NCBI GenBank assembly: GCA_021735045.1
Contig: JAIPHU010000002.1
Location: forward strand, 1-32,000
Length of the DNA: 32,000 nt
Direction: 5' to 3'
Source: Candidatus Omnitrophota bacterium
GTDB taxonomy: Bacteria > Omnitrophota > Gorgyraeia > Duberdicusellales > 4484-171
The first letter of the stretch is position 1. Each line of letters starts with the position of its first letter. Made by a program: the position numbers and the translations under genes. This document shows, piece by piece, positions 7,044-29,573 of this stretch. The notes beneath the pieces were generated by a model. That model searched no databases, was not told where the DNA came from, and was given only the letters and a program-made list of their open reading frames with translations.

Positions 7044-7430
7044 ATGCGAAAACTAAAGATTTTATTAGTTGACGATGAAAAAGATTTTCGCAAGATAATG
7101 AAAGTAAGGATTTTATCCTGGGAGTTTGTAGAGCATGTCTTAACTGCTAAAAACGGCGAGAGAGGTATTGATGCTGTTAAAAAAGAAGAGCCAGATTTAA
7201 TTATTTTAGATTATATGATGCCAGGGATAAATGGGGTAGAAACTTTAAAAAGAATAAGAAAATTTAATAAAGATATTCCGGTAGTCATGTTTACTGCTTA
7301 TCCTAATAAAAAATCAATGGAAATTACTGAAAAGCTTAACATTACCGCTTTTGTTCCTAAGTGGAGTGAAGTAAACGATATTGAGAAAAGCCTTAAAACA
7401 GTCGTTGATTCAATTGCAAGGAGAGGTTAA
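7044..7430 (+). CDS. Receiver-only response regulator (CheY-like)
   Basis: ILLVDDE, LIILDYMMPGINGVE, PVVMFTAY, K at FVPKW. No output domain. Confidence 0.9.
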   Translation: MRKLKILLVDDEKDFRKIMKVRILSWEFVEHVLTAKNGERGIDAVKKEEPDLIILDYMMPGINGVETLKRIRKFNKDIPVVMFTAYPNKKSMEITEKLNITAFVPKWSEVNDIEKSLKTVVDSIARRG

Positions 7431-7433
7431 ATA

Positions 7434-8462
7434 ATGACAAAAAGAAAAAAGGCAGCTAAGAAGATAGATAGAAAAAAGATTAATAAAAATCTATATAAAG
7501 TTGTTTTGTCTGAATTAAAATATAATCCCTTGCGCAGCATCAAAAATTGTTTTGCCCTTATGGCAATAATACCTTTTTTAACTTTAACTTATCTTTTACT
7601 TGGAAAAAATTTTCTTTATAAACTTTTTTTAGGTGATAACGGGATAATAATCGGGATAGCTATTTTTATTTCTATTTTGGGTTTTTTATTTGCTTATAAA
7701 CTTACTGTTAATATCGTAGATAAGATGCTTTTTTATTTTGTTGAACGAAAAGTTGCCGATCAGGAGAAGTTAGAGATTATTTCTGGTTTTTCACATGATT
7801 TAAAAACACCTTTGGCTATTGTAAAAACTGGTCTGCAAAACATTAATGATGAAGTTGATGGGGTTTTGCCTAAAACATATAAACAGATTGCAAAAGTGTG
7901 TTTAAAAGGGGTAAATAAGGCGACTAATTTTATAAATCAGATATTGAAACTTGCTAAAATAAAAGTTACCGTTTCTAATGTTAACCGAGGTTTAGTTGAT
8001 TTTGATAAAATAATAAAAAAAGAACTGTCAGAGATTATTGCTTTGGCAGACAAAAACAACCAAAAGGTAAATTGCAGGTTTTTATCGACTGATTCAAAGA
8101 TTTGGGGGGATAAAGAAAAATTATCTAGAGCGGTAATGAATCTTTTATCGAATGCTGTTAAGTACGCTGATAATAAAGGTAGGATAGATATAGCACTTTC
8201 TTCTGACAATAATGCAATAAAACTTGCCGTGATAAATACCGGCCCTGGGATTCCTCAAGATAAGCTTGATAAGATATTCGTTAAGTATGAAAGGGTCAAC
8301 GCGAAATCAAAAAAAGAAGGAACCGGAATTGGTCTTTCTTTAGTTAAAGATATTATTGAACTGCATAAAGGTCATATAACTGTAAAAAGCATTCCCAATA
8401 AAGAAACTGAATTTGAAGTAACTTTACCCCGCGATTTACGAACTAAGGCCCGATGTAATTAA
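7434..8462 (+). CDS. Membrane-anchored sensor histidine kinase (HisKA + HATPase_c)
   Basis: Two N-terminal TM segments, H-box SGFSHDLKTPL, N-box NLLSNAVKY, G-boxes NTGPGI and GTGIGLSLV. Confidence 0.9.
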   Translation: MTKRKKAAKKIDRKKINKNLYKVVLSELKYNPLRSIKNCFALMAIIPFLTLTYLLLGKNFLYKLFLGDNGIIIGIAIFISILGFLFAYKLTVNIVDKMLFYFVERKVADQEKLEIISGFSHDLKTPLAIVKTGLQNINDEVDGVLPKTYKQIAKVCLKGVNKATNFINQILKLAKIKVTVSNVNRGLVDFDKIIKKELSEIIALADKNNQKVNCRFLSTDSKIWGDKEKLSRAVMNLLSNAVKYADNKGRIDIALSSDNNAIKLAVINTGPGIPQDKLDKIFVKYERVNAKSKKEGTGIGLSLVKDIIELHKGHITVKSIPNKETEFEVTLPRDLRTKARCN

Positions 8463-8472
8463 GTTTAAAAAA

Positions 8473-10437
8473 ATGGCTAAGAAAAAATATAAAAAACAGA
8501 AACGAAAATTAGTTAAGGGATCCAAAACAGAGGACTTAGTTAGGCTTTTTACTGAGTTGATGGATAATATCCCTGATGTAATCTATTTTAAAGATAAAAG
8601 TGGGAAGATCGTTTTGGTAAATAAGGCTTATGCGAGAGGATTAGGTATAACTCCGGATGAAGTCATTGGCAAAACTGATTTTGATATTTTTCCTAAAAGT
8701 AGAGCCCAGATGATGCAGAAAGATGATCTCTGGGTAATAAAAAATAAAAAACCAATTATTGATAAAGTTGAAAGAGCTACTCGGCCTGATGGCCAAGATA
8801 ACTATAGCTCAACTACCAAAATTCCTCGTTTTGATAAAAAAGGATCAGTAATCGGTTTAATTGGAATAACTAGAGATATTACCCGGAGAAGAAGGCTTGA
8901 GCAATTAGAAGAAGATAAGCATCAGATGCAGCGAAAAATTAAATCGTTGAAGGAAATTAATAAGTTAAAGTCGGAGTTTATTTCTATTGTTTCCCATGAG
9001 CTTCGCACGCCTTTAGCTATTATTAATCAAGTAGTTATGGTCTTATTGGATGGATTAGTAGGAAAACTAAACAAAAAACAAAAAGATATTATCATCAAAG
9101 CAAAAAATAGCGTTAATCGGTTAAGCAATATGATAAATAAGTTGTTGGATGTTTCACGGATGCAAAGAGGAGTCCTAGAGCTTCATTATGGGTTGATAGA
9201 TTTAAAAAATTTGCTTAAAGATTTGGGGGGTTCTTTTCAAGAATTTGCTAAGAAAAAAGGAATTATCATTAACTATGATTTTTGTTCAGAAGATATAAAT
9301 TTATTTTGTGATCCAGAAAGGCTTTCACAAATTGTATCTAACTTAATTGATAATGCTATCAAGTTCTGCGAAGAAAAAAGTACAATAACTATTGAGTTGC
9401 GAAAGTTGGCAACAAAGGTCCGTATTGGTGTAATTGATCAAGGGATTGGGATAGATAAAACTAAAATAAATAAAATATTTGATAAGTTTAGTCAAGTTTC
9501 AGGTTTGGCTCGAAGCAACAAGGAAGGGGTGGGGTTAGGGCTTTCTTTAGTAAAGGACTTAGTTAAAAAACATAAAGGTGAAGTTTGGGTTGAGTCTAAG
9601 CTAGGTTCAGGGAGTAAATTTTATTTCACTCTTCCTTTAATTTATAAGTTTCAACTAACCAATAATAAAATAGTAGATATCATAAATAATGCTCTGGCTA
9701 AAGATTTATCTGTTTACTTGATTGAAGTTATAATTATAAAATCTAAAAAAGGGACATCTGGCAGATATACGGTGAAAAAAGATTTTTATAATAAAATTAA
9801 AGAGATAGTTCAAAAAGCTATAATAAACTATAAGGATAAAAATAAAATAGATATCTGCATTGTCGGTGATGACTACAAAAAAAGAACTATTAGCATAGCT
9901 TCAGTTGATAAAACTAATAAAAAATCTATAAAATTTTGCAATTTGTTAAGAGAAAAATTAAAAAAGGTATTAGCTAAAGAAGCAGCAAAGGACGTGTTTA
10001 TTAATTTGGGAACTATGAGTTACCCTAAAGAAAGCAGGCAAGTAGTTCCTCGCCAGTTGGCATCTTCTTTTAGTATTCAGAAAATTTTTACAGGAAAGGA
10101 GATAAGGCGGTCAAAGCGTTTTCGCTATCAGGCGACTTTAAATTTTAATTTATCTGATAAAAAAAGAGGTGCTGCTGAGACTATTGATATCTCTAAGGGC
10201 GGTTTGTGTTTTAAAAATGGCAAAAAACTTAAAAAAGGAGATAAAATAGAGGTGGAGCTTATGGTTTTGAATAAAAAAGAAAGGTTGAACCTTGTGGGTC
10301 AAGTAGCTTGGGTTGCACGAGCTGAAGAAGACAGCAAGGGTTTTGCAAGATATTATAAGATAGGAATTGAGTTTTCTAAACTTAATCAGAAGGAAAGAAA
10401 AATTATTACCCAAGCAATTGAAGATATAGCAAAATAA
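8473..10437 (+). CDS. Cytoplasmic PAS sensor histidine kinase with C-terminal PilZ domain (and a possible degenerate GGDEF-like linker domain)
   Basis: PAS (MDNIPDVIYFKDKSGKIVLVNKAY...GITRDIT). H-box SIVSHELRTPL, N-box NLIDNAIKF, G-box GVGLGLSLV. PilZ motifs RRSKR (R545xxxR549, nt 10105-10119) and DISKGG (D572xSxxG577, nt 10186-10203). Confidence 0.9.
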   Translation: MAKKKYKKQKRKLVKGSKTEDLVRLFTELMDNIPDVIYFKDKSGKIVLVNKAYARGLGITPDEVIGKTDFDIFPKSRAQMMQKDDLWVIKNKKPIIDKVERATRPDGQDNYSSTTKIPRFDKKGSVIGLIGITRDITRRRRLEQLEEDKHQMQRKIKSLKEINKLKSEFISIVSHELRTPLAIINQVVMVLLDGLVGKLNKKQKDIIIKAKNSVNRLSNMINKLLDVSRMQRGVLELHYGLIDLKNLLKDLGGSFQEFAKKKGIIINYDFCSEDINLFCDPERLSQIVSNLIDNAIKFCEEKSTITIELRKLATKVRIGVIDQGIGIDKTKINKIFDKFSQVSGLARSNKEGVGLGLSLVKDLVKKHKGEVWVESKLGSGSKFYFTLPLIYKFQLTNNKIVDIINNALAKDLSVYLIEVIIIKSKKGTSGRYTVKKDFYNKIKEIVQKAIINYKDKNKIDICIVGDDYKKRTISIASVDKTNKKSIKFCNLLREKLKKVLAKEAAKDVFINLGTMSYPKESRQVVPRQLASSFSIQKIFTGKEIRRSKRFRYQATLNFNLSDKKRGAAETIDISKGGLCFKNGKKLKKGDKIEVELMVLNKKERLNLVGQVAWVARAEEDSKGFARYYKIGIEFSKLNQKERKIITQAIEDIAK

Positions 10438-10521: not shown

Positions 10522-10761
10522 ATGATTAGAAAAGATAAATTATTAGTTAAATTAGATAAACTACAAGAGCTAGAAGGTAGGTTGATTCCTTTGTTGGATA
10601 AGCATCTTTCGGCTTCTCTAGACTTTAGTCAGTTGCCAAAAGAGGAAAGGGATAAGACCATGGAATTTTTAAAAAGTAGGGTAAATATACAGAAAAAACA
10701 CACTGAATCGATTAAAAGTATCAAAGAAGAATTAACCGAATCCGAAAAAAATGTTTACTAA
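10522..10761 (+). CDS. Small helical protein A1 (unknown family; paralogue of 18941-19165)
   Basis: 79 aa, charged and helical, no TM or signal. Gap-free alignment to A2 with shared E..(L/S)IP(L/I)..KHL.SA and a second conserved His. Overlaps the next ORF by 11 nt. Confidence 0.6.
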   Translation: MIRKDKLLVKLDKLQELEGRLIPLLDKHLSASLDFSQLPKEERDKTMEFLKSRVNIQKKHTESIKSIKEELTESEKNVY

Positions 10762-10945
10762 AGAAGATTACTTAACTTATTTTGATCAATTAGCAGATAT
10801 TTATAAAGATTCTATTAATCTCTACACTGATTTGCTAAATGGTTTACAAGATAAAGCAATCCGAAATAAGTTACTAGCAGTTGCTTCAGAAAATATGGAA
10901 GCTTTTCGTTTTATAAAAGAAGAAAAGACAAAATTTAATAAATAA
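10751..10945 (+). CDS. Small helical protein B1 (unknown family; paralogue of 19165-19368)
   Basis: 64 aa. Shares M.(T/S)KEDY, Y..L and DK.I(R/K)N with B2. Translationally coupled to A1. Confidence 0.6.
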   Translation: MFTKEDYLTYFDQLADIYKDSINLYTDLLNGLQDKAIRNKLLAVASENMEAFRFIKEEKTKFNK

Positions 10946-10956
10946 AAGGAGAAGTT

Positions 10957-11328
10957 ATGCCTGCCAACAAAAAAATACTTATTGCTGATGATGAACCAGA
11001 TTTTGTGGAACTTATATCCATGCGTCTTGAAGTTAACGGCTATGATGTGGTTTCGGCTAAAGATGGCCAAGAGGCAATTGATAAAACTAAAAGTGAAAAG
11101 CCGGATTTATTGATTTTAGACTTAATGATGCCCAAAGTTGATGGGTTTGAGGTTTGCCGGATGCTAAAGTTTGACGATAATTTTAAGGATTTGCCGATAA
11201 TAGTACTTTCTGCTCTTGATCAGCAACAAGATCGGGAAAAGGCCGTTGAGGCTGGAGCCGATGAATACTTTATCAAACCTTTTGATTTAAGCTTACTTTT
11301 AACTAAGATTCAAGAACTTACTGGATAA
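10957..11328 (+). CDS. Receiver-only response regulator (paralogue of 22302-22664)
   Basis: KKILIADDEPD, PDLLILDLMMPKVDG, IIVLSA, IKPFD. aaggag RBS. No output domain. Confidence 0.9.
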   Translation: MPANKKILIADDEPDFVELISMRLEVNGYDVVSAKDGQEAIDKTKSEKPDLLILDLMMPKVDGFEVCRMLKFDDNFKDLPIIVLSALDQQQDREKAVEAGADEYFIKPFDLSLLLTKIQELTG

Positions 11329-13708: not shown

Positions 13709-16150
13709 ATGAAGAAAATAATCAATCTTGTCTTTAGTTTAATTGTAGTTGCCGGATTAACTTCATTTCTATACCATTACACCCAGCAAGCAGAAATAAA
13801 TTATTATCAGGGGCACCGCTTATTTTTAAATGGTAACTATAGCAAAGCCATTCCTTACTACAAAAACTCTCTTAAAGCTGACCACAGACAATTTAAGGCA
13901 AAAAAAGAGTTAGCTTATTCTTATTTTTGGACTGATAATCCAAAAAAATCTATACCCCTTTTTGAAGATATTTCTAAAAAAAATCCAAAGAATCAAGAAT
14001 TAAAACTATATCTGGCTAAGGCCTATTCTCGAACTGGTAGCCGTAACAAGGCGCTATCGATTATGGGTAAGATTGAGACTAAGGACAAACAACTAGATAT
14101 AAAAATGACCTTAGCAGAAATTTATATCTGGAACAATCAGTTAACTAAAGCCAGAGAGTTGCTTAGAGAAGTTCTAGCTCAGAATCCTAGTAATAATAAG
14201 GCAAAGTTTCTTTTAGCTAAAACTTTTTATTATGATCAAAAAAGTAAAAAAGCTTCAAAAATCTTAGAAAATTTACTAGAGGAAGGAAAAGAACTGCCTG
14301 AGAATGTTAAAGAAAAAGAAGTAAGAGGGCTTTTAGCTCAAACTTATATATCAAGCAATCAGAGTCAAAGGGCGGTTGAGCTTTATCAGCAGTTGGTTGA
14401 TCAGAATCCTAACGATATAGATTTAAAAATGAAATTAGCTGAACTCTTAAGCTGGACTAAAGAACTAGAAAGATCAGAAGATTTGTATCGAAAAATAATT
14501 AAAAAATCCTCCCGGAAAAGAGAAGCCTATCTAGGCCTAGCTAAGGTATTAATTGGGCAAAACCGGTATAAAGAAGCTATCAGTATAATTGATAAGATCG
14601 GAAAAATAAAAGGAACTAAAAATGCAAAGCTGATGTATGGAAAAGCATTGTTATATTCAGGAAAACCAAAATTAGCGCGGGATATTTTTGCTAAACTATT
14701 AAAAGATTATCCTCAGGATTTAGAAACTAAAGAATTATTGGCAGATGCTTACGCCTATAGTAAAAAATATAAAAAAGCGATTTTATTATATCGGAAAATT
14801 CTAGTTAAAACAGATCGTCGCAAAACAAAAAAAGGTTTGGCAGCAGTTTTAAGTTGGAATCAGCAATACCAAAAATCAATTAAATTATACGATCAATTAC
14901 TTGCCGAGGAGTACGATCCAGAGGTTAAACGGCAAAAAGCTCGCGTATTAGGCTGGAGCAAGAACTACCAGAAAGCTTTAGCTGAATATAAGGATTTACT
15001 GGATAAGGAAAAAAGTTCAGCGATTAGGCTGGAGATGGAGGCAAAACAAGCTTATTGGCAGGGAGAAGTTAAGAGTGCAATCAACAATTACCAAAAGCTC
15101 TTGATTGCAGAGCCAGATAACGTTGAAGCTGCCTTTGATCTCAGCCAGCTTTACTCTTATCAGGATATGTGGGAGGAGGCGATCAACCAATATGAAAATA
15201 TCTTAAAAGTACAACCACTGCATTCCAGAGCCAGAGAAGGCTTAGAAAAAGCAAAAATTTTTTATAAAAAAGTTAAAACCAGGCTAGATTATCTATTTTT
15301 TGAAGCTGATTCTCCCGACAGAACTACAGACATTAAAAAACACCAAGTTTTAAAATCAGCATCTTTTTTTATTGCTAAAAATAAAAAAATAAAGATTTCT
15401 TCTGACTTTGCCCAGAGAAGTTTTTCTGATTTTTCTTCGATTTCAGAAAGTAAGACCCAGCTCGAAATTAGCTACCAAAATAATCCCGATTGGAATTTAA
15501 GCGCTTATTACGGTTTAGTTAATTACTACAAGCACCTCGATGAGTTATTCCATCTATTTGGAGCATCTTTTTACCATCGTTTTTTTGATCGGGGGATGTT
15601 TAACTTTAATTACCAACGCCAAAGGCTGACCGACAACAGCCAGTTGATTAGAGATTACGCTTACCGGCATAGTTTTGAAAATAAAATTGATTTTGATTTA
15701 ACGTCGAAACTTAAAATGGGCCTTGACTGTAGATTAGCCTATTATTTTGATGCAAATTTTTTAGTTGAACCAGGAATTGATTTTACCTATTATTTTTCTA
15801 AAGAGCCCAGGCAATTTTATCTTACCTATAGGTACTTTTTTAAAGAATTTAGAAAAGAAAGTTCTGATTATTGGACACCGCGGGGGTTTTCTACCAATAA
15901 ATTAACTTTAGCTTGGCGTCATTACCTAAATTCAGACCAATTATTTTTTGGGGCAGATCAGCTTTATTATCAGCTAAAGTATGAAGTTTCCTTAGATTCA
16001 ACAGACATTTTAATTCATAAATTTATTGGCCAATTTAACTGGGATATTAATAAGAGTCTGAATATCCACTTTGGTGGTTCTTTTGCCGATACAACTTCCA
16101 ATGTTTATCAGGAAAAAAGAATTACGGCGGGGTTAAGCTATTATTTTTAA
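13709..16150 (+). CDS. Outer-membrane exopolysaccharide export protein: N-terminal TPR array plus C-terminal beta-barrel (PgaA/BcsC-like architecture)
   Basis: N-terminal signal or anchor. About 500 aa of TPR-like repeats (A..Y...L...P.N). The last ~290 aa are aromatic-rich with alternating hydrophobicity, ending in GLSYYF (terminal Phe beta-signal). Confidence 0.75.
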   Translation: MKKIINLVFSLIVVAGLTSFLYHYTQQAEINYYQGHRLFLNGNYSKAIPYYKNSLKADHRQFKAKKELAYSYFWTDNPKKSIPLFEDISKKNPKNQELKLYLAKAYSRTGSRNKALSIMGKIETKDKQLDIKMTLAEIYIWNNQLTKARELLREVLAQNPSNNKAKFLLAKTFYYDQKSKKASKILENLLEEGKELPENVKEKEVRGLLAQTYISSNQSQRAVELYQQLVDQNPNDIDLKMKLAELLSWTKELERSEDLYRKIIKKSSRKREAYLGLAKVLIGQNRYKEAISIIDKIGKIKGTKNAKLMYGKALLYSGKPKLARDIFAKLLKDYPQDLETKELLADAYAYSKKYKKAILLYRKILVKTDRRKTKKGLAAVLSWNQQYQKSIKLYDQLLAEEYDPEVKRQKARVLGWSKNYQKALAEYKDLLDKEKSSAIRLEMEAKQAYWQGEVKSAINNYQKLLIAEPDNVEAAFDLSQLYSYQDMWEEAINQYENILKVQPLHSRAREGLEKAKIFYKKVKTRLDYLFFEADSPDRTTDIKKHQVLKSASFFIAKNKKIKISSDFAQRSFSDFSSISESKTQLEISYQNNPDWNLSAYYGLVNYYKHLDELFHLFGASFYHRFFDRGMFNFNYQRQRLTDNSQLIRDYAYRHSFENKIDFDLTSKLKMGLDCRLAYYFDANFLVEPGIDFTYYFSKEPRQFYLTYRYFFKEFRKESSDYWTPRGFSTNKLTLAWRHYLNSDQLFFGADQLYYQLKYEVSLDSTDILIHKFIGQFNWDINKSLNIHFGGSFADTTSNVYQEKRITAGLSYYF

Positions 16151-16162
16151 ATTTAAATTATA

Positions 16163-17995
16163 ATGAATAAGAAAAAATTAATTGATTCTTTGATTTTATT
16201 TACTTTGGTTGCAGTGATGGTCTATGTTGTAACCAGGGCGGTTTTAGTTGGTTATGCTGATTATACTGGCTGGGATCGTTTTAGTGCTATCGGTTTGTTG
16301 CTGGCAGAGTTGTTTGTAGTTTTTCATGGCGTAGGTTATACCTTAAACATCTATCGGGCTTATAGGTATAGTGGTGGAAAAGAAAAGATGCAAGAGGTAG
16401 CAAATAAACCTTTGCCAGAGGAACCATCGGTTGCGATATTTGTTGCTGCGCGCCATGAACCAAAAGAAGTTTTAGAGGAAACTTTTATTAGCATCAAAAA
16501 CTTAAAATATAAAAATAAGAGTATTTATTTCCTTGATGATAGCTCTAAAAGCACTTATAAAAAAGAAGCAGATCAATTAGCAAAAGATCTAGATTTAAAG
16601 ATTTTTCGACGCAAGGATCGCCACGGAGCAAAGGCAGGAATCATTAATGATTGTCTAAAGACAATTAATTCTAAGTATTTAGTTGTTTTTGATGCAGATC
16701 AGAATCCGCTACCTGAGTTTTTAAATCGTGTGGTGGCGTTGATGGAGTCGGACCAAAGACTTGCTTTTGTCCAAACCCCTCAATTTTATAGTAATGTGGA
16801 AGGTTCACAAATTGCCAAAGCGGCGGCTTTTCAGCAAGCGGTATTTTATGAATATATCTGTGAAGGAAAAAGTAGCCAGGATGCGATGTTTTGTTGCGGA
16901 ACAAATATTATTTTTCGCAAAAAAGCCTTAGATCAAGTAGGTGGCCTAGATGAAAGTACAGTTACCGAAGATTTTGCCACTTCTTTTAAATTTCACCAAA
17001 AAGGCTGGAACTCTTTATATTACAATCATGTCTATGCTTTTGGGATGGGGCCGGAAGATTTAGTCGGTTATTTTAAGCAGCAATACCGTTGGGCCAACGG
17101 CACGATCACTGTTTTTAAGAAAGTGTTAAAGAATTTAATATTGCACCCATTTTCTTTAAAAATTAAACAATGGGTAGAGTATTTACTTTCCAGCAGTTAC
17201 TATCTAGTTGGTTTTGCCTTATTTGGCTTGATGCTTTTTCCGATCTTTTATCTTTTATTTGACATCCCTTCTTTCTTTGCTAAGCCACAAGTTTATTTTT
17301 TAGTTTTTTTACCTTATATAACTCTTTCTTTAAGTATATTTTATTTCGTGTTAAAAGAAAGGAACTATACTGCCGGAGATCTTTTTAAAGGCCAGCTGGC
17401 CGGGTTTATAAGCTTTCCGATCTATTTGCAAGCCGCTGTTTCTTCCTTTTTTGGCAGAAAGGCTACTTTCGGGATAACCTCAAAAGCAAAGGGGAAGTTT
17501 GTATCTTATTTTAGATTGTGGCCGCAAATTGTACTTTTATTCCTAAATTATATTGCGATTGTCTGGGGAATGAATCGATTCATCTATCAACGTGATCCGG
17601 CGGTAGTAATTAATGTTTTTTGGGCCTTTTATCATTTTTTGCTGTTAGCTTCTATTTTTTATTTTAACGAAAGGATTATTCCTAAGGCTTTTTTAAAAAA
17701 AATTGCGAAAGAGAGAATAGTTGACTATCAAGTTCTCGAGAGAAATCGCCCCAAACCTGAATTAAACTCTAGGAATTGGCCGGTTTGTTTTGCGACCAAG
17801 TTGCCGGATCGATTAAAAGAGGGAACACTGTTGATGGCAAAAGTAAAAAGCAGAGGAGGAAAGCAGCTAATCTTTGACGCAGAAGTTACCTGGGCGAGTC
17901 CCAGAAAGCGGTTTGGCGGTTATGCTACTGGCTTTGGAGTTGCCAAGGCTTCACCGGAAATTATTACCCAATTAAGGAAATTAGTAAAAAAATGA
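16163..17995 (+). CDS. Processive family-2 glycosyltransferase, cellulose-synthase-like, with degenerate PilZ-like C-terminal domain
   Basis: YFLDDSS, HGAKAGIIND, VVFDADQ (DxD), FVQTPQFY, VTEDFATS (TED), QQYRWANG (QxxRW). 2 N-terminal and about 4 C-terminal TM helices. The C-terminal ~95 aa form a small beta domain resembling the PilZ C-terminal part. Confidence 0.9.
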   Translation: MNKKKLIDSLILFTLVAVMVYVVTRAVLVGYADYTGWDRFSAIGLLLAELFVVFHGVGYTLNIYRAYRYSGGKEKMQEVANKPLPEEPSVAIFVAARHEPKEVLEETFISIKNLKYKNKSIYFLDDSSKSTYKKEADQLAKDLDLKIFRRKDRHGAKAGIINDCLKTINSKYLVVFDADQNPLPEFLNRVVALMESDQRLAFVQTPQFYSNVEGSQIAKAAAFQQAVFYEYICEGKSSQDAMFCCGTNIIFRKKALDQVGGLDESTVTEDFATSFKFHQKGWNSLYYNHVYAFGMGPEDLVGYFKQQYRWANGTITVFKKVLKNLILHPFSLKIKQWVEYLLSSSYYLVGFALFGLMLFPIFYLLFDIPSFFAKPQVYFLVFLPYITLSLSIFYFVLKERNYTAGDLFKGQLAGFISFPIYLQAAVSSFFGRKATFGITSKAKGKFVSYFRLWPQIVLLFLNYIAIVWGMNRFIYQRDPAVVINVFWAFYHFLLLASIFYFNERIIPKAFLKKIAKERIVDYQVLERNRPKPELNSRNWPVCFATKLPDRLKEGTLLMAKVKSRGGKQLIFDAEVTWASPRKRFGGYATGFGVAKASPEIITQLRKLVKK

Positions 17996-18948
17996 TTAAA
18001 AAAATTAAATTAATAGTGATTATTTTTATTATTATTTTGTTTTCTTTTTTTTATTTTGCATACATAAAGCAAATCGGTAAAAACGATTATTGTTTAACGG
18101 GTGCTTTTTTGGCGGACCGGCCAACTAGAAAAGAGATAAAAGAATTTCAAAACAACTATGGTAAAAAGCCATATTTGGTGATGGTTTTTATTGATTGGGA
18201 AAACTTTATTGAAAGAAGTGTCTATCAAGATATTTTTGCTGCCGGTTCAGTTCCTTTTGTTACCTGGGAGCCTTGGCAGGCCGAAACTAAAGAAGGAATT
18301 GATTTTGACCAAATCTTAAGCGGAGAGTATGATCAGTATATAACTAATTTTATAGAGAGGATCACTAAATTTAAAAAGCCAGTTTTTTTACGCTTTGCTC
18401 ATGAAGCTAATGGCAACTGGTATCCTTGGGCCGGGAAAAAAGTGGGAGCTGCGAAGTTAATCGCTGTGCAAAGATATCTCAAGGATTTGGCAGAGAGGCA
18501 AGGCCCCAATCAGATCAAGTGGGTGTTTTCGGTTAATTGGCAAGATATACCGGCAGATAAAGATAATTTTTTTATGAACTACTATCCGGGCAAAGACTAC
18601 GTTGATTATTTTGGCATTGATGGTTATAATTGGGGTGATACGCAAGAATGGAGTCATTGGATGGAATTTGCAGAGATTTTTAAAGATCCCTATCAGATTA
18701 TAACCTCAGAGACAAATAAACCGGTTATAATTTCTGAATTTGGCTCGGCTCAATCCGGTGGAGATAAAGCTGAATGGATAAAAAATACTTTTAAAACTAT
18801 AAAGAAAATGAAAAGAGTTAAAGGTTTTGTTTTGTTTAATCTGGATAAGGAAGCAGCTTGGCGGTTTCGGCCCCAAAGTGCAGCTGGTAAGCAACTCAAA
18901 AAAGGATTAAACAACTCATATTTTAAGGAGAGCCTGAAAGGTGAATAA
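17992..18948 (+). CDS. Membrane-anchored GH26-like glycoside hydrolase
   Basis: N-terminal TM anchor. RFAHEANGNWYPWAG (GH26 acid/base HE.NG.W motif) and IISEFGS (nucleophile Glu). ATGA overlap with the GT2 stop. Confidence 0.7.
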   Translation: MIKKIKLIVIIFIIILFSFFYFAYIKQIGKNDYCLTGAFLADRPTRKEIKEFQNNYGKKPYLVMVFIDWENFIERSVYQDIFAAGSVPFVTWEPWQAETKEGIDFDQILSGEYDQYITNFIERITKFKKPVFLRFAHEANGNWYPWAGKKVGAAKLIAVQRYLKDLAERQGPNQIKWVFSVNWQDIPADKDNFFMNYYPGKDYVDYFGIDGYNWGDTQEWSHWMEFAEIFKDPYQIITSETNKPVIISEFGSAQSGGDKAEWIKNTFKTIKKMKRVKGFVLFNLDKEAAWRFRPQSAAGKQLKKGLNNSYFKESLKGE

Positions 18949-19165
18949 AAAAGAAATTATCAAGCATCTTAAAGAAGCCTTAATTGCAGAAGAAAAATCA
19001 ATTCCAATTTATACTAAGCATCTTGATTCAGCTGTTTTTTGGACTGGGCTAGGAAAAGAAAAAGCTGAGGAAATTAGAGAGATTCTTTCCGAATTAGCGC
19101 GAGGTTCAATGATCCATAAACAAATTATTGAAAATTTGATCAAAAAACTAGAAGGGGAAACTTAA
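18941..19165 (+). CDS. Small helical protein A2 (paralogue of A1)
   Basis: GTG start 10 nt after aaggagag, overlapping the GH26 3' end by 8 nt. 74 aa. E17-x6-Y24 and S56-x2-H59 pattern. Confidence 0.6.
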   Translation: MNKKEIIKHLKEALIAEEKSIPIYTKHLDSAVFWTGLGKEKAEEIREILSELARGSMIHKQIIENLIKKLEGET

Positions 19166-19368
19166 TGCTATCCAAAGAAGACTACCAAGAACATCTTAAT
19201 CAGATGCTGGAGTTAGAAGAAAACATGGAAAAAATGTATGAAAATCTAGCCAAGAGGGTTGAAGATAAAGAAATAAAAAATATTTTTAGAAAAATTAGAG
19301 ATGATGAACAAAAACATGCCGCTTTGGTGCGAAAAATGAAAAAAATGATTACCGAAGAAAGCAATTAA
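19165..19368 (+). CDS. Small helical protein B2 (paralogue of B1); reads like one ferritin/rubrerythrin-type helix pair
   Basis: TAATG stop/start overlap with A2. 67 aa. E18-x6-Y25 and E48-Q-K-H51 (ExxH). Confidence 0.6.
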   Translation: MLSKEDYQEHLNQMLELEENMEKMYENLAKRVEDKEIKNIFRKIRDDEQKHAALVRKMKKMITEESN

Positions 19369-19383
19369 AACTGGTGCAGTAAA

Positions 19384-22287
19384 ATGAGATATAGATTAAG
19401 CATTAAAATTTTATTTTGGTTTTCCTTGTTTATTATAGCAATTGTCGTAGTAAATTTGGCTTCTATTTATCAACTGCAGCGAATGGAAAAGCCCCTAAAA
19501 GAAGAGCTAACCCAAGATATCCAAAACATCAAAGAAAACGAAATATTAGATCATCTAGCTGAATTGATAAGATACTACGATGAAGTTTTAACTCAATCGG
19601 TGCGAAATTATGCTTTTACCGGTAACTTAGAGTGGAAGAAGCGCTATCAAAATATTGAACCAAAATTAGATCAGGCGATCAAAGAAGCAATATCTCGTGG
19701 AAACAGACAGGATAAAAAATTTTTTAAAACAGTTGATCAAGCCAATGAAATTTTGGTCAACCTTGAACATCAAGCTCTAGACTTAGTTGACCAAGGTAAT
19801 CAAGATCAGGCGATTGCGATTTTAGAAAGTAAAAAATATAGAGCCAATAAAAATCAATACTATTCTGGCTTTAGTAGCTACTTACAACGGAGAATGTCTG
19901 AGCACGAAAAAGCGATAACTTTCTCCAGCAAAGATTTAGAAGAAACAATAAGTATATTAAATGAAATTACAAAACAAAATTATTATTTTTTTATCGCTTC
20001 CTTAGCTTTTATCTTGTTGGTCTCATTCTTGTTTGGCTTATTTTTACGTTTTAATGTTTCTCAGCCGTTAACTCGATTGGTAAAATTAATCAAAGCTTCC
20101 GGTAAAAAGGGAGGAAGGAAAGATCTCGTTAACAATAATTTTGGCTTGATGAAACGAAAAGATGAGATTGGAGAGTTGGCAACAACTTACAACCAAATCT
20201 GGCAAGATCTAGAAGAAACTACAGTTTCTCGCGAAAAACTAGTAAAAGAAGTTGAGCTGCATAAGGAATCAAAACAAAAGATTAGCCGCCTAAATATGAT
20301 CTTACGGTCAATCTCAGAAATAAACCAAATGCTAATTAATGTTGATAACCGAAAAAGTTTAATTGAAAAAACCTGTCGAGAGCTGATTAATATTAGGGGT
20401 TATAAAAGTGCCTGGATTGTTCTATTTGATCCTCAAGGTGATTTTTTAGATGCTGCATCTTTCGGGCTAGGCGATAAATTTAATTTATTTAAAAATGATA
20501 TTAAAGTAGGAAGCATCCCCCGCTGTTTAAGTAAAATATGCAAGGAAAAGAAGCTATTTCAAGTTGATGAGCCGCATCAAATGTGCAAAGATTGCTCCTT
20601 ATATAAATACCACCAAGGAGTTAAAACTATTGTTACTTGCCTGCAGCTAGAGGGGGTTGTATATGGGGCCTTAACGGTAGCTATTCCTGAGAGTATTGAA
20701 ATTGATCAGCAAGAGTTATCTTTGCTTAAGGAAATTAGCGGAGATATTTCTTTGGGGCTGCATCACTTAGAAGTTGAAAAAAAACGTCGGTTAACTGAAA
20801 ATAAGTTAAAAGAAAGAGTAAAAGAATTTGGTTGTTTGTCAAATTTGGCAAAAATTGTCGAGGAGCCCGGTATTAGCTTAGAAGGAATATTAGCTAAAAC
20901 AGTGGAGATAATACCTTTTGCCTTGCAATATCCCAGTAGTGCTTCGGCTCGATTAAGGTATGCAGAAAATGAGTATAATACTAAGGGTTTTAAGGAAACC
21001 AATTGTAAATTAAAAGAGGATATTTATGTTGATTTAAAAAAGGTTGGTTTTATCGAAGCTTGTTATTCTTTAAGTATACAGGATGAAAAAGGGGAGTGTC
21101 CTTTTTTAGAAGAAGAAAATACTTTATTTAGATTGATAGCGGAACGGCTAGGCAGAATTATCGAACGAAAAAAAGCCGAAGAGTTTTTAGAAGAAGCTAA
21201 AAATAAATTCAGTAGTTTAGTGGACAATGTTCCCGGGGCTATCTATCGATGTGCCAATGATTCAAAATGGACTATGAATTATATTAGTGATGAAATTGAG
21301 AAAATATCTGGTTATCCGGCTAGTGATTTTATTAAAAATAAGGTAAGAACTTATGAAAGTATAATTTACAAAGAAGACAAGGATTTGGTCAATAAAAAGA
21401 TTCAAGAAGCTATAGAAAAAGGAAAATCTTATAATATTGAATACAGAATAGTTAATAAAAATGATAAGGTTGTATGGGTGGGCGAGAAAGGGAAAGGTGT
21501 ATTCAATAAAGAGGAAAAATTGATTTGGCTTGACGGTGTTATCTTTGATATTACTTTACAGAAGAAAGCAGAAGATAAATTAGAAAAAGCAATAAAAATG
21601 AAGTCAGATTTTTTATCCACAGTTTCTCATGAGTTGCGTACTCCACTGGCTGCAATCAAAGAAGGGATAAATATAGTTTATGACCAATCCGCCGGTAAAA
21701 TTAACAAAGAGCAGAAAGAATTTTTGACGATATCAAAAAGAAATGTAGACCGCTTGGCTCGTTTGATCAACGATGTCTTAGATATCCAGAAATTAGAATC
21801 AGGCAAAGCGGAGTTTAATTTTAAAAAAGAGAATATCAATGACATAATTAAAGAAGTTTTTGAGACGATGCAGCCCCATGCAGCTAAAAAGCAATTACAG
21901 TTAAAATTAAATCTAGATAGTAATATTTCGAAGATAAAAGTTGATCGGGATAAGATCATTCAAGTTATCACCAATTTGATGAGTAATGCAATTAAATTTA
22001 CTGAACAAGGGAAAGTAGTTATAAAAAGCTTGTTAGAGCAAAATGCGATAAAGGTTATAGTCTCTGACACAGGGCCGGGGATAAAAAAGGAAGATTTGTC
22101 AAAATTATTTAAGACATTTCAACAACTTCAAACTGGAAAAGGACGGAAAACCGGGGGGACTGGCCTAGGATTGGCAATCTGTAAGGATATAATCAACAAA
22201 CACCGTGGGAAAATATGGGCAGAGTCAGAACTAGACAAAGGCTCAAAATTTATTTTTTTGCTGCCGATTAAGGAAAGGCGAGCTTAA
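19384..22287 (+). CDS. Large multi-domain sensor histidine kinase (TM - helical extracytoplasmic domain - TM - HAMP - GAF-like x2 - PAS - HisKA - HATPase_c)
   Basis: TM1 aa ~9-27, TM2 aa ~200-222, HAMP-like (PLTRLVKLI...IGELATTYNQI). PAS (VDNVPGAIYRC...GVIFDIT). H-box STVSHELRTPL, N-box NLMSNAIKF, G-boxes DTGPGI and GTGLGLAICK. Confidence 0.9.
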   Translation: MRYRLSIKILFWFSLFIIAIVVVNLASIYQLQRMEKPLKEELTQDIQNIKENEILDHLAELIRYYDEVLTQSVRNYAFTGNLEWKKRYQNIEPKLDQAIKEAISRGNRQDKKFFKTVDQANEILVNLEHQALDLVDQGNQDQAIAILESKKYRANKNQYYSGFSSYLQRRMSEHEKAITFSSKDLEETISILNEITKQNYYFFIASLAFILLVSFLFGLFLRFNVSQPLTRLVKLIKASGKKGGRKDLVNNNFGLMKRKDEIGELATTYNQIWQDLEETTVSREKLVKEVELHKESKQKISRLNMILRSISEINQMLINVDNRKSLIEKTCRELINIRGYKSAWIVLFDPQGDFLDAASFGLGDKFNLFKNDIKVGSIPRCLSKICKEKKLFQVDEPHQMCKDCSLYKYHQGVKTIVTCLQLEGVVYGALTVAIPESIEIDQQELSLLKEISGDISLGLHHLEVEKKRRLTENKLKERVKEFGCLSNLAKIVEEPGISLEGILAKTVEIIPFALQYPSSASARLRYAENEYNTKGFKETNCKLKEDIYVDLKKVGFIEACYSLSIQDEKGECPFLEEENTLFRLIAERLGRIIERKKAEEFLEEAKNKFSSLVDNVPGAIYRCANDSKWTMNYISDEIEKISGYPASDFIKNKVRTYESIIYKEDKDLVNKKIQEAIEKGKSYNIEYRIVNKNDKVVWVGEKGKGVFNKEEKLIWLDGVIFDITLQKKAEDKLEKAIKMKSDFLSTVSHELRTPLAAIKEGINIVYDQSAGKINKEQKEFLTISKRNVDRLARLINDVLDIQKLESGKAEFNFKKENINDIIKEVFETMQPHAAKKQLQLKLNLDSNISKIKVDRDKIIQVITNLMSNAIKFTEQGKVVIKSLLEQNAIKVIVSDTGPGIKKEDLSKLFKTFQQLQTGKGRKTGGTGLGLAICKDIINKHRGKIWAESELDKGSKFIFLLPIKERRA

Positions 22288-22301
22288 AGATAGGGGTAAA
22301 G

Positions 22302-22664
22302 ATGAGTAAAAAGATTTTAATTGTAGATGATGAGCCAGATATTTTAAAAATTGTAATTTTTCGGCTCAAGAATAAGGGCTATCAAACAATCAGTGCAACC
22401 AGTGGAGAAGAAGCGTTTCAGTTGTTAGGAGAGGATAAACCGGACCTTATCATTTTAGATTTACGAATGCCGGGTATCAATGGGGATGAGGTTTGCCGCA
22501 GGATTAAAGCAGACAATAATTTAAATAAGATACCGGTAATCTTGTTAACCGCATCTACCGGCCATGATATTGCAGGATTAGCAAAAGATATAGGAGCGGT
22601 TGATTTCATTCGAAAACCCTTTGATAGTCAACATTTTATCAATAAAATAGAGAATGTTCTCTAA
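22302..22664 (+). CDS. Receiver-only response regulator
   Basis: KKILIVDDEPD, PDLIILDLRMPGINGDE, VILLTAS, IRKPFD. No output domain. Confidence 0.9.
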   Translation: MSKKILIVDDEPDILKIVIFRLKNKGYQTISATSGEEAFQLLGEDKPDLIILDLRMPGINGDEVCRRIKADNNLNKIPVILLTASTGHDIAGLAKDIGAVDFIRKPFDSQHFINKIENVL

Positions 22665-24833: not shown

Positions 24834-26276
24834 ATGAAAGAAAAAATAGCTGTTGTTGGTGCTGGAGTTGGGGGGTTGGCGACTGCAGCAAGGCTTAGTT
24901 ACCTCGGTTATGAGGTAGAAGTCTATGAAAAACTTTCTGAGTGTGGGGGAAGGGCTCATCTAATTGAAGATAGAGGGTTTAAGTTTGATACAGGGCCTTC
25001 TTTTGTGCTGATGCCAGATTTTTTTAAAGAAGTTTTTGATTTTTGTAAAAAGGATATATCTGATTATCTTAATCTCGTTACCCTAGATACTAATTATAAA
25101 ATATTTTACCCAACTGGAAAAACTTTAACTATTTACCAAGATAAAGCTAAAACGGAAGCAGAGCTAGAAAAAATAGAACCAGGTGCGAGTTTTGGCTATA
25201 ATCAGTTCCTTCAAGATACAAGAAAAATTTATCAAGCTGTTAAACCTTTACTTTATCATTGCTTCTCTAAGGCTGACCTGTTTAAACCTTCTACTTGGGC
25301 TCTTATCAAAAAGTTAGATATCGGTAAAACTTATTGGCAACTTGCTAATAAATATTTTAAGAGTCCGGAGCTTTGTTATGCTTTTACCTTTGAAGCTATG
25401 TTTATTGGAGTCTCTCCTTTTTCTACACCATCTTTTTATAGTGTTATCACTTATTCGGATCATGTAGAAAAAATACGTCACCCGATTGGAGGAATGTATC
25501 AAATACCTCTAGCTTTAGAAAAAATGGCTAAGGAGTTTGGAGCAAAGTTCCATTACAATTTCAAAGTAGATGAAATAAAAAAAGAAAATAGATTTTTGAT
25601 TATGTCTGGAGAAAAAAAAGAGGCAGCAGACAAAGTTGTGGTTAACACAGATTGGTCATATACTCAGCAAAATATTTTAAAAAGGAAAATACCCAAGTTG
25701 AAATACTCGTGTTCAGTTTATCTGATTTATCTTGGTCTTACTAAAAAGGTAGAAGCGCTAGAACACCATAATTTATTTTTTGCAAAAGACTTACCTAAAA
25801 ATCTTGCTGATATTTTTACCAACTCGAATATACCCGAGGACCCTTCATTTTATATCCATGTACCAACTCGTACTGATTCAAGCCTGGCCCCGGAAGCAAA
25901 AGATATTGCTTATATTTTGGTGCCCGTACCAAATTTAGAAAAAAAGTATTGTTTTAAAGATCATGAACAAAAGGTTAGAGATATAATATTTAATATTGTA
26001 AAAGATAAACTAGGCATAGATCTTAGAGATTTAATTGAAATAGAGCATCGTTTTTATCCAGATGATTTTATCGAAAAATATAATATTTTAAATGCAGCTA
26101 CTTTTGGCCTTTCGCATAATTTTCTTCAAAGCGCATTTTTTAGGCCCACTAATTTTGACTCAAAATATAAGGGACTTTATCATGTGGGGGCAAGTACTCA
26201 ACCAGGCGGAGGGCTTCCTACTGTTTTAGCTAGCTCTAAGATTGTAACTGATTTGATAGCTTCTGGCCGGCCTTAA
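24834..26276 (+). CDS. crtI: Phytoene desaturase family FAD-dependent oxidoreductase
   Basis: N-terminal dinucleotide fold IAVVGAGVGGLATAARL...E.YEK....GGRA. C-terminal GASTQPGGGLPTVLASSKI signature of CrtI-family desaturases. Confidence 0.85.
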   Translation: MKEKIAVVGAGVGGLATAARLSYLGYEVEVYEKLSECGGRAHLIEDRGFKFDTGPSFVLMPDFFKEVFDFCKKDISDYLNLVTLDTNYKIFYPTGKTLTIYQDKAKTEAELEKIEPGASFGYNQFLQDTRKIYQAVKPLLYHCFSKADLFKPSTWALIKKLDIGKTYWQLANKYFKSPELCYAFTFEAMFIGVSPFSTPSFYSVITYSDHVEKIRHPIGGMYQIPLALEKMAKEFGAKFHYNFKVDEIKKENRFLIMSGEKKEAADKVVVNTDWSYTQQNILKRKIPKLKYSCSVYLIYLGLTKKVEALEHHNLFFAKDLPKNLADIFTNSNIPEDPSFYIHVPTRTDSSLAPEAKDIAYILVPVPNLEKKYCFKDHEQKVRDIIFNIVKDKLGIDLRDLIEIEHRFYPDDFIEKYNILNAATFGLSHNFLQSAFFRPTNFDSKYKGLYHVGASTQPGGGLPTVLASSKIVTDLIASGRP

Positions 26277-27112
26277 CCAATATTTTTAATTTTTTTAACA
26301 ACAGATTTTATGATATTTTCTGGAGTGGAGGCTCCTGCTGTTATCCCCACTGACTTTATATTTTTAAACCAATGTGGGCTAATTTTTTTCTCATTTTCTA
26401 TCCAATAAGTCTTGGGGTTTATTTTCCTAGATATCTGATAAAGTCGTTTAGTGTTAGCGCTTGCTTTTGAGCCAATGATTAAGACCAATTCATTCTGATA
26501 AGACATTGTTTTTATCTCATTTTGTTTTTGACGAGTTGGTTTACAGATTGTATCTATAAATTTTAAATGAGGGATATATTTTTTTATTTTGTAAACAATA
26601 TTTTTTACTTCATCGATATTTTGAGTTGATTGACTAATCACAACAGCTTTTTTTAAACCTTTTAGCATTTTTTTTTCTATCTTAACTTTTGGGTTAAATA
26701 CTAGCGGTTCTTTATCTAGTTGTCCCACTATACCCTGTACTTCGTCGTGTTTTTTATCTCCAATGATAATTATTTTATAACCTTTGTTTTGGTATTGTTT
26801 AGCAATTTGATGGATTTCTTTTACCATCGGGCAAGTTGCATCAATAATCTTATAGCCGAGTTTTTTCGCCTTTCTATAAGTTGATTTTGGTGCTCCATGG
26901 GCCCGGATCAGGAGGGTTTTATCTTTTCCGTTAGTTAACTTATTGATTTTTTTAATCCCCATTTTTTTGATTTGCTTGACAACTTCTTCGTTGTGGACTA
27001 TATCGCCAAGCATATCAATTTTGGCACAATTTTTTACAGCTTCATCAGCAATGATTAAAGCTTGTTTTACCCCCAAACAAAAACCCGCGGATTTTGCAAT
27101 GTTTATTTTCAT
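26273..27112 (-). CDS. ispH: 4-hydroxy-3-methylbut-2-enyl diphosphate reductase
   Basis: AGFCLGVKQAL, GDIVHNEEVV, IRAHG, ATCPMVKEIH, GDKKHDEVQG, ITAGASTPE: the three Cys ligands and conserved His typical of IspH/LytB. Confidence 0.9.
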   Translation of the reverse strand: MKINIAKSAGFCLGVKQALIIADEAVKNCAKIDMLGDIVHNEEVVKQIKKMGIKKINKLTNGKDKTLLIRAHGAPKSTYRKAKKLGYKIIDATCPMVKEIHQIAKQYQNKGYKIIIIGDKKHDEVQGIVGQLDKEPLVFNPKVKIEKKMLKGLKKAVVISQSTQNIDEVKNIVYKIKKYIPHLKFIDTICKPTRQKQNEIKTMSYQNELVLIIGSKASANTKRLYQISRKINPKTYWIENEKKISPHWFKNIKSVGITAGASTPENIIKSVVKKIKNIG

Positions 27113-27972
27113 AAGTATTTAAAATTAAGTACAGTCGATAAACTAATTAATATTTTATCTGAAATAGTAGTATAGGCTCGTTTTTTAAAAATATTATATT
27201 GATTTTGTTCAATTTTATCAAGTATAGCTGCATAAATATTTTTCATAAGATATATTGTTAATCGGCAACGGCATCCAGTTATAAACTTTATTCCTTTTTC
27301 TGATTCTTGGTAAAGCTTCCGGGCTTTGTTTATTTGAAATTTCATAAAATTGACAAAATTGTCATCTACTATTTCTTTCTTCAAGTTGTTTTGGCTGATA
27401 TTAAATTTTTTGAGGTCGTCTTTTGGCAAATAGATCCGGCCTCGCTTAAAGTCTTCTTTTATATCCCGTAAGATATTTGTTAGTTGCATAGCGACTCCAA
27501 GGTCTATCGCATATTTTTTAGCGCTCTTGTTTTTAAAGCCAAAGATATAGAGCATAATTAATCCTACAACTCCAGCTACTCTGTAACAATATTTGTAAAG
27601 TTGATCATAGTTTGTGTAGGTATTTTTTTCTAAATCCATCTGCATGCCTTCGTTTAGATGGTCAAAATATTCTTTTGGTATATTATAGGAGTTGATAGTT
27701 TTTCTAAATGCAGAAAGTAAACTTGAGTTTGGTGGTTGAGATAAATAGGCAGCATCAATATTATTTTTTATTTGCTCTAATTTTTTTCGATTTCCTAGGC
27801 TGTTATCTACGCTATCGTCGCTAATTCTACAAATGGCATAGATAGCATAAGCGCTTTTTTTCTTTTGAAAGTTAAGTAGAATAGAGGCGAAGTAGAAGGA
27901 TTTTGCATTTTTTTTAGTTATTTTCTTTGCTAATTTAAATCCTTGGTCAATCTTTGTATTTTTTTTTAACAT
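27109..27972 (-). CDS. crtB: Phytoene (squalene/phytoene family) synthase
   Basis: YAICRISDDSVD and NILRDIKEDFKRGRIYLP Asp-rich motifs, YCYRVAGVVG. 4-nt overlap with the ispH start. Confidence 0.9.
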   Translation of the reverse strand: MLKKNTKIDQGFKLAKKITKKNAKSFYFASILLNFQKKKSAYAIYAICRISDDSVDNSLGNRKKLEQIKNNIDAAYLSQPPNSSLLSAFRKTINSYNIPKEYFDHLNEGMQMDLEKNTYTNYDQLYKYCYRVAGVVGLIMLYIFGFKNKSAKKYAIDLGVAMQLTNILRDIKEDFKRGRIYLPKDDLKKFNISQNNLKKEIVDDNFVNFMKFQINKARKLYQESEKGIKFITGCRCRLTIYLMKNIYAAILDKIEQNQYNIFKKRAYTTISDKILISLSTVLNFKYL

Positions 27973-29569: not shown

Positions 29570-29573
29570 AAAG

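Follow-up and report, generated by a model that had tools for sequence, protein, structure and literature searches.

Two-helix hairpins that amount to half of a ferritin-like bundle are known from the encapsulated ferritin EncFtn, from EncB/EncC and from the designed 'due ferri' diiron hairpin DF1, and in EncFtn-type hairpins both the four-helix bundle and its di-iron centre are built only at the dimer interface (PMC5012862). These proteins form homodimers whose site is symmetric, which EncFtn assembles further into decamers, and EncFtn also has an encapsulin-targeting tail and an adjacent encapsulin gene. In the single-chain rubrerythrin and DUF2383 proteins, such as PA2169 and TM1526, the two halves follow each other within one polypeptide. 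Here we describe two pairs of small adjacent genes, A1-B1 and A2-B2, in the first 32,000 nucleotides (nt) of contig JAIPHU010000002.1 of a Candidatus Omnitrophota bacterium (the whole of this stretch is called the window below). Their products are homologous helix-loop-helix half-ferritins, A corresponding to a rubrerythrin-like N-terminal half and B to the C-terminal half, and they belong to an uncharacterised family. The fold as such is already known; what is new is its split, putatively heterodimeric form, its context in a polysaccharide operon and the existence of a paralogue that has lost metal ligands and is linked to a receiver. Searches of the available literature found no description of the A/B pair or of ferritin-like subunits in bcs-type operons.

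EncFtn, EncB/EncC and DF1 are the best fold matches of A2 and B2 and the best profile matches of B2, whilst A and B are two diverged genes whose products would form an asymmetric heterodimer that has Ser where one Glu would be expected. No encapsulin gene was found near A/B, and their context is a polysaccharide synthase operon. A2 followed by B2 matches the halves of rubrerythrin and DUF2383 in their single-chain order, but split over two genes, lacking a rubredoxin domain and with only B2 passing the gathering score. The operon itself invites comparison with the Bcs operon (BcsA-BcsB-BcsZ-BcsC), with which it shares a processive family 2 glycosyltransferase (GT2) bearing QxxRW, a hydrolase gene and a TPR export protein. 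PilZ domains with intact cyclic di-GMP (c-di-GMP) motifs also occur in the A/B system, however they are fused to B or, in the window, to a histidine kinase rather than to the synthase, which has no detectable PilZ; furthermore BcsB was not found and the hydrolase is mostly a lichenase-like GH26, with a few GH8. Another relevant group is that of the hemerythrin-domain sensors of oxygen or redox, which control c-di-GMP or chemotaxis outputs (review PMC9388753). In these a di-iron four-helix bundle is the input to biofilm-type outputs, and a hemerythrin fills the A2/B2 slot in two related loci; nevertheless hemerythrin is a single chain with five His, one Glu and one Asp, so that fold family and ligand set differ from those of A/B, for which a sensing role is putative. 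Finally, Spo0B and HPt proteins, like the predicted A/B dimer, are four-helix bundles of helical hairpins that have a conserved His and stand-alone receivers close by, but A/B have no sequence relationship to them and no HxxKG, and the His of A/B is conserved regardless of two-component genes.

A preliminary description of the window had read A and B as dedicated members of a four-gene signalling module, made up of A, B, a histidine kinase (HK) and a receiver-only regulator (REC), that was duplicated as a whole. The open reading frames (ORFs) lie at the positions that it gave, on the + strand, and the paralogy of all four components is borne out by pairwise BLASTP matches; its central claim, as set out below, does not hold.

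Half-ferritins encoded by adjacent genes

A2 (18941..19165, + strand, 74 amino acids) and B2 (19165..19368, + strand, 67 amino acids) fall on different parts of the 137-position Pfam Rubrerythrin model, A2 on positions 2-59 (E 1e-3; 19.9 bits, below the gathering score of 22.8) and B2 on positions 94-136 (28.4 bits, above that score), and they are therefore, in order, the N-terminal and C-terminal halves of a single-chain ferritin-like four-helix bundle. The AlphaFold2 models are two-helix hairpins in both cases, with helices at residues 3-29 and 39-72 in A2 (pLDDT 88) and 4-31 and 35-64 in B2 (pLDDT 94). Foldseek returns EncFtn 5n5e as the top match of A2 (TM-score 0.74) and finds the same structure for B2 with a TM-score of 0.91, together with DF1 and EncB/EncC. 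A B profile run against the PDB recovers de novo designed 'due ferri' diiron hairpins (DF), TM1526, bacterioferritin, symerythrin and encapsulated ferritins; an A profile run against PDB sequences recovers nothing significant. The two families are nonetheless related to each other, as profile-profile comparison with hhalign of an 18-sequence A alignment and a 20-sequence B alignment gives a probability of 93.8% (E 2e-7) and pairs E17, Y24 and H59 of A2 with E18, Y25 and H51 of B2, the loop of A being nine residues longer.

The second pair, A1 (10522..10761, + strand, 79 amino acids) and B1 (10751..10945, + strand, 64 amino acids), consists of what we call the type-1 paralogues of A and B. A1 and A2 share 34% identity over 29 amino acids (BLASTP E 2e-5), and B1 and B2 31% over 39 (E 5e-8). 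The two copies of A and the two of B are also found by profiles made from relatives, at E values between 1e-32 and 1e-39, A1 matching the A-family profile at 3e-39 and B1 the B-family profile at 7e-32. Neither A1 nor B1 matches a Pfam or NCBIfam family, no curated family in those two collections covers A1, A2 or B1, and the NCBIfam matches that do appear all lie far below their cut-offs. Clustering at 50% identity yields 468 clusters for the A family, the best 150 of which contain proteins of 58-94 amino acids, that is, stand-alone proteins.

Comparison with relatives was based on 47 loci, nearly all from one phylum, which were obtained by pattern scans of genome and metagenome collections and by exact look-ups. 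They hold 62 A/B pairs, of which 43 remain once those more than 90% identical are removed, and neighbour counts said to be with context refer to pairs with readable flanking sequence. The metagenome scan was seeded with the B family and not with A, because the A-family alignment is too variable. An exact-sequence look-up of B2 gave no match, and the first round of a word-indexed search gave five close relatives. The close relatives of the window show full synteny, and the hits of the word-indexed search are from Omnitrophota wherever the source names an organism. Some contigs of metagenome-assembled genomes that bear the pair (L015, L019) carry taxonomic labels in conflict with Omnitrophota, 'uncultured Planctomycetia' twice and 'Elusimicrobium minutum' once.

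In all 62 pairs B lies directly after A. The usual junction is an overlap of 11 nt, as between A1 and B1 (10751-10761), where ATGTTTACTAA codes for both the '...VY-stop' of A1 and the 'MFTK' of B1. This overlap, which has its equivalent in most loci, ties the last residues of A (DVY or DAF) to the first ones of B (MFTK or MLSK), so that the two vary together; the apparent conservation of the A tail is therefore partly a by-product of overlapping coding. A2 and B2 share only one base, and each is preceded by a Shine-Dalgarno-like sequence (AAGGAG for A2). The idea that A and B are one frameshifted gene was considered and rejected, because the split is conserved at every locus and with two different types of junction.

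B2 has the complete motif E18-Y25-E48-x-x-H51, of the form E-x6-Y...E-x-x-H seen in EncFtn, EncB/EncC and DF1, and its spacing equals that of E32/Y39/E62/H65 in EncFtn. The candidate ligands of A2 are E17, Y24 and H59, with S56 at the position of the second Glu and an additional invariant H27, which the model places three residues before the end of helix 1. The full motif is interrupted in A2 by S56, in A1 by the loss of Y24 and in B1 by replacement of the ligands: A1 retains H27 and H59 but has lost Y24 and the Ser/acid pattern, and B1 has Tyr, Asn and Ala in place of all three metal ligands. The same is true of the type-1 clade as a whole, in which the three ligands of B have become hydrophobic or small residues and A keeps H27 and H59.

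Conservation was read from columns of 228 A and 94 B family members. H59 is conserved in 99% and H27 in 92% of the A family; within the class of A that is ligand-complete E17 reaches 96% and S56 90%, and in the corresponding class of B E18, E48 and H51 all reach 100%, as does Y25 in the B class with H51. Overall the ligand columns of the ligand-complete classes are 90-100% conserved, the values being 96-100% for E18, E48 and H51 in B and for E17 and H59 in A. H27 is a Tyr in P0174 and is lost in a divergent A (L036:2230). The preliminary description had singled out an invariant KHL-x-SA in A; the His is indeed invariant, but the motif shrinks to [KR]-H-[LIV]. The window's A sequences around it are KHLDSA and KHLSAS. 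That description was also right that the canonical HPt motif is absent from A.

A bcs-like operon in the window and in related loci

The genes before A2 are those of a synthase-dependent polysaccharide system. The first of the operon (13709..16150, + strand) encodes an 813-residue TPR-rich export protein that resembles BcsC and PgaA; it matches many Pfam TPR families and, weakly and below cut-off, the NCBIfam families PgaA and BcsC, and its position upstream of the glycosyltransferase (GT) is kept in relatives. The second (16163..17995, + strand, 610 amino acids) encodes a BcsA-like processive GT2 synthase with Pfam Glyco_trans_2_3 and Cellulose_synt domains and QQYRW as its QxxRW motif; it aligns with the BcsA structures 7lby and 4hg6 over residues 80-497 (E 5e-44 to 8e-39), and its closest NCBIfam family is CelA, at 236 bits and below that family's cut-off. 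Pfam finds no PilZ domain in this GT, and the match to BcsA ends before PilZ. The third (17992..18948, + strand, 318 amino acids; Pfam Glyco_hydro_26) encodes a lichenase-like GH26 hydrolase in the position of BcsZ, which matches the GH26 (lichenase) domain of the C. thermocellum endoglucanase H with E 4e-53.

The GH26 gene shares 4 nt with the GT gene and 8 nt with A2. From the TPR gene through to REC2, which with the kinase HK2 comes after A2/B2, all junctions are overlaps or gaps of at most 15 nt, and terminator-like hairpins on the + strand around this block are found only at 6976 and 23139. The region 13709-22664 is best read as one tightly packed operon for a synthase-dependent beta-glucan, either cellulose-like or of mixed linkage. 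BcsB is absent from the gene tables of the loci syntenic with or related to the window, Pfam annotation of the window and of its syntenic loci shows no encapsulin family, and no rubredoxin domain was found. Membership of A/B in EncFtn was considered and rejected because no encapsulin gene was found.

The same association is seen across the family. Whereas the preliminary description had looked to HisKA and REC genes as the expected neighbours of A/B homologues, a census found their partner to be a BcsA-like GT2/GH26/TPR operon, with 25 of the 26 ligand-complete pairs with context following a GH26, a GH8 or a GT. The gene directly upstream is GH26 in 23 cases, GH8 in one and GT2 itself in one, the last pair (L029) lying among housekeeping genes. 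The hydrolase is always preceded by a BcsA-like GT2 and one or two TPR proteins, and the P0174 loci are further places where the pair is found beside genes of a synthase operon. A GH8 (BcsZ-type) hydrolase stands in for GH26 at L019 (4569-5768) and in the P0174 loci; between lineages there may be differences in the polymer itself or in its trimming enzyme. Taken together the census, the BcsA-like GT, the GH26, the tight spacing and the position of the hairpins identify A2/B2 as genes at the end of a beta-glucan operon of bcs-like type.

Outside the lineage of the window no ligand-complete pair has a kinase next to it, and for most of these pairs two-component genes are absent from the vicinity altogether. 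The type-1 pair behaves differently. In 12 of 12 non-redundant cases it is followed directly by a stand-alone receiver, and in 9 of the 11 with context it is directly preceded by the GT; it normally lies between GT and GH26. The canonical order is TPR-GT-A1-B1-REC-(HK-REC)-GH26-A2-B2 (L010, L014, L015, L026, L027, L034, L037, L043, L045), and in L016 and L032 there is no kinase at all in the operon. The suggestion that A/B are not chance neighbours of signalling genes is thus correct for the type-1 pair and its receiver, but the family-wide partner is the GT2/GH26/TPR operon; as A/B are almost always attached to a cellulose-synthase-like operon in Omnitrophota, the kinases and receivers beside them in the window are to be regarded as an add-on.

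Five loci have a B with PilZ as its C-terminal domain (L018:6001-6474, L019:6001-6492, L022:6001-6528, L029:8001-8471 and L036:10016-10531), and in these fusions the RxxxR and [DN]xSxxG motifs for c-di-GMP are intact. Another type of fusion is found at L036:2230-3970, just upstream of a TPR-GT-GH26-A-B(PilZ) operon, where the divergent A without H27 is followed by a 503-residue protein made up of a B-like N-terminus, a receiver-like domain and a CofD/YvcK-family domain. The fusions of B to PilZ and to REC, together with the place of REC1 next to B, identify the position after B as that of a receiver for a second messenger or a phosphoryl group. At L040 (13706-14122), and also at L041, a 138-residue hemerythrin is found directly before GH26; the type-1 pair is present there and the type-2 pair (that of A2/B2) is absent, and the kinase of L040 is a hybrid CHASE-PAS-HisKA-HATPase-REC-Hpt protein.

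Several further features of these loci were observed. The GT has a conserved C-terminal extension of ~100 amino acids (window 17690-17995) which, as in L014, L015, L016, L026, L027, L034, L037, L038 and L043, is found only in operons with a type-1 pair; its pattern is vaguely like that of PilZ strands, the hhalign comparison with PilZ is not significant (probability 2.8%) and the c-di-GMP motifs are absent. The GTs of four of the B-PilZ loci have no such extension, and the fifth locus, L029, has no GT nearby. In two lineages the BcsA-like GT is present as two ORFs, at L040:7166-9004 (309+292 amino acids) and L045:6080-7909 (335+268 amino acids), which are either real splits or frameshifts of assembly. 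In one lineage (L045:15009-17116) A2/B2 are followed by a secreted 258-residue protein of no known family and by a PP2C phosphatase of SpoIIE type, and regulation may have an additional level there. Downstream of the operon in the window (24834-30617), going by the Pfam tables of the syntenic locus L001, there is a cluster of isoprenoid or carotenoid type with an amine-oxidase-like desaturase, IspH/LytB, a squalene/phytoene synthase, two lycopene-cyclase-domain genes and a polyprenyl synthase.

Kinases, receivers and the unit of duplication

The window contains three kinases and three receivers, all on the + strand. HK1 (8473..10437) is a PAS-HisKA-HATPase-PilZ kinase (PilZ E 3e-13); the ~150 residues between its HATPase and PilZ domains (residues ~395-540, window 9655-10100) have no family assignment. 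HK2 (19384..22287) is a TM-HAMP-GAF-PAS-HisKA-HATPase sensor kinase, REC1 (10957..11328; Pfam Response_reg E 2e-30) and REC2 (22302..22664; E 2e-29) are stand-alone receivers, and the two-component pair REC3-HK3 (7044..8462) provides a comparison within the window. All six have the expected domains above the Pfam gathering scores, and SHELRTPL, DDE..D and LDL.MP...KPF could be read in them, in keeping with the H-box of the kinases and the acidic pocket, phospho-Asp and conserved Lys of the receivers. As had been noted in the preliminary description, none of the three receivers has an output domain, Response_reg being their only Pfam match, there is no DNA-binding regulator among the annotated ORFs (Pfam for the window, Pfam table for the syntenic L001), and the gene orders are HK1-A1-B1-REC1 and A2-B2-HK2-REC2.

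The duplication of the whole four-gene set, however, is contradicted by the kinases. The cores of HK1 and HK2 do match, with 35% identity over 270 amino acids (BLASTP E 3e-44), but this closeness is not specific: HK1 is 34.8% identical to HK2 and 36.8% to HK3, with HK2-HK3 at 32.3%, so that the kinases of the two putative modules are no more alike than HK1 and HK3 are, which for the kinases is the very outcome that the preliminary description had named as refuting it. HK2 has its orthologue in the operon kinases of L014, L015 and L026 (52-61% identity), whereas HK1 is 31-33% identical to the operon kinases, falls outside the HK2 clade in a tree and has no orthologue there. It is only in the window's lineage that HK1 adjoins A1.

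The other components have a different history. REC1 and REC2 are 42% identical over 118 amino acids (E 2e-33) and form sister clades relative to REC3, their mutual score being 100 bits against 64-67 bits to REC3. REC1 is the orthologue of the receivers that follow B1 in related loci (62-67% identity) and REC2 of those that follow the kinase (47-52%). The type-1 clade is monophyletic in the A tree and in the B tree, so that of the co-duplication once proposed for all four genes, that of A with B stands, as does the sisterhood of the two receivers, and that of the kinases falls. From these orthologies it follows that the duplicated unit was the A/B pair, possibly with a receiver, and not the four-gene set, relatives of the window having two A/B pairs in operons with one kinase or none. 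To judge from these comparisons, A1/B1 belong to an old clade of type-1 paralogues without B-side metal ligands, and the gene order of the window arose by rearrangement in its own lineage rather than being a property of a duplicated module.

Function of the pair

Given the fusions of B to receiver domains, the adjacency of REC1 and the hemerythrin found in the same slot, the reading that we favour is that A/B regulate the glucan synthase as a heterodimeric, di-metal subunit of it, within a bcs-like operon and accompanied by a type-1 adaptor pair, and we put the probability of this at about 0.55. One A and one B would together make up a four-helix bundle, a heterodimer whose di-metal carboxylate site is asymmetric: B would contribute E18, E48 and H51 to it and A would contribute E17 and H59, with Ser replacing the second bridging Glu. 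The bundle would serve the synthase, which itself lacks a recognisable PilZ, as a regulatory or sensor subunit on the cytoplasmic side, and would presumably be in contact with it. Signals would run towards the synthase from two inputs, one the state of the metal site (oxygen, redox or iron), the other a receiver domain located at the C-terminal end of B or beyond it, be it a fused PilZ or a stand-alone REC beside type-1 B, and the two together may set polymer output post-translationally. A1/B1, having lost the B-side ligands, would act as an adaptor for REC1, which may be phosphorylated by the kinase of the operon. An ancestral order GT-A1-B1-REC1-HK2-REC2-GH26-A2-B2 would have been rearranged in the window's lineage, leaving A1-B1-REC1 ~5 kb upstream beside the unrelated, PilZ-bearing HK1 and HK2-REC2 after A2/B2.

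A number of observations weigh against this proposal. The sample is small, at 47 loci found by pattern and nearly all from one phylum. One canonical Glu is missing from A, which has S56 instead, and A2 of the window moreover has a Gly at position 55, which is Asp or Glu in 82% of its class, so that the predicted site may hold a single metal or no metal at all. H27, though invariant, lies ~10 residues from that site and is not accounted for by the model. The grounds for the putative heterodimer are homology, adjacency and the logic of a split domain. No relation to PilZ could be established for the C-terminal extension of the GT, the pair of L029 sits amid housekeeping genes, and the replacement by hemerythrin is seen in one lineage only. 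Many single-pair operons have neither PilZ nor REC, and a receiver is therefore not required.

It is quite unlikely that A/B are dedicated accessory or input proteins of the kinases, in a signalling module duplicated as a unit. Each pair of the window does have a kinase and a receiver beside it, the triad A1-B1-REC is kept without exception and REC1 resembles REC2 more than either resembles REC3; yet related operons combine two pairs and two receivers with a single kinase or, in L016 and L032, none, HK1 is as close to HK3 as to HK2 and has no orthologue amongst them, and ligand-complete pairs mostly lack any nearby two-component gene. The conserved histidines raise another prospect, namely that A1/B1, or A/B generally, are a phosphotransfer bundle like Spo0B or HPt that relays from kinase to REC1, to His27 of A and on to REC2. 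H27 and H59 persist even in type-1 pairs without the other ligands, and the canonical insert of one kinase, two stand-alone receivers and a bundle amounts to the parts list of a phosphorelay. Against this, there is no match to Pfam Hpt at E values up to 1 and no HxxKG motif, H27 is 94% conserved in a class that includes pairs with no kinase or receiver nearby, the L040 kinase has REC and Hpt domains of its own, and H27, near the end of helix 1, is exchanged for Tyr in P0174 and lost in L036:2230; we regard such a relay as very improbable. A combination of the two ideas, in which A1/B1 are a ferritin-derived His27 phosphotransfer bundle between receivers and A2/B2 a heterodimeric 'due ferri' sensor of oxygen or iron that gates a PilZ-less synthase, is likewise a long shot, and its first half would mean that HPt function had arisen from a half-ferritin fold.

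Two further explanations do without a regulatory role. Omnitrophota are mostly anaerobes, among which rubrerythrins are common, and the E/Y/ExxH motif and EncFtn-like fold would suit a free-standing enzyme of antioxidant defence or iron handling, namely a ferroxidase or peroxidase of rubrerythrin or EncFtn type with no tie to the polysaccharide genes beyond shared transcription. This is unlikely, as divergent lineages keep the pair in the same place at the end of the operon, with start and stop codons that overlap, fusions of B to PilZ and to REC-CofD exist, a whole paralogue clade retains the pair after loss of the ligands, and neither an encapsulin gene nor a rubredoxin domain was found. Alternatively A/B may be a metal-free structural subunit of the secretion machinery comparable to the small helical Bcs accessory proteins, since they are small, helical and stoichiometrically co-encoded, and type-1 pairs do persist without B-side ligands; that in the ligand-complete classes the ligands of B (E18, E48, H51) and of A (E17, H59) are conserved at 96-100%, and that a hemerythrin occupies the same slot in one lineage, makes this a decidedly doubtful proposition. 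Each of these two covers part of the evidence, but not the conserved ligands, the operon position and the receiver fusions in combination.

If the favoured proposal of a di-metal switch on a BcsA-like synthase is true, it would be a new form of control over exopolysaccharide output, separate from control by c-di-GMP and PilZ and by phospho-receivers and yet able to be connected to both, in a phylum with almost no cultured members. The pair would then correspond, in nature, to the heterodimeric 'due ferri' proteins made by design, and would be the first pair of half-ferritins in a regulatory context rather than one of iron storage. The type-1 clade constitutes a natural experiment on what survives the loss of the metal site in such a bundle, and about 470 clusters of 'hypothetical' proteins gain an annotation that can be tested.

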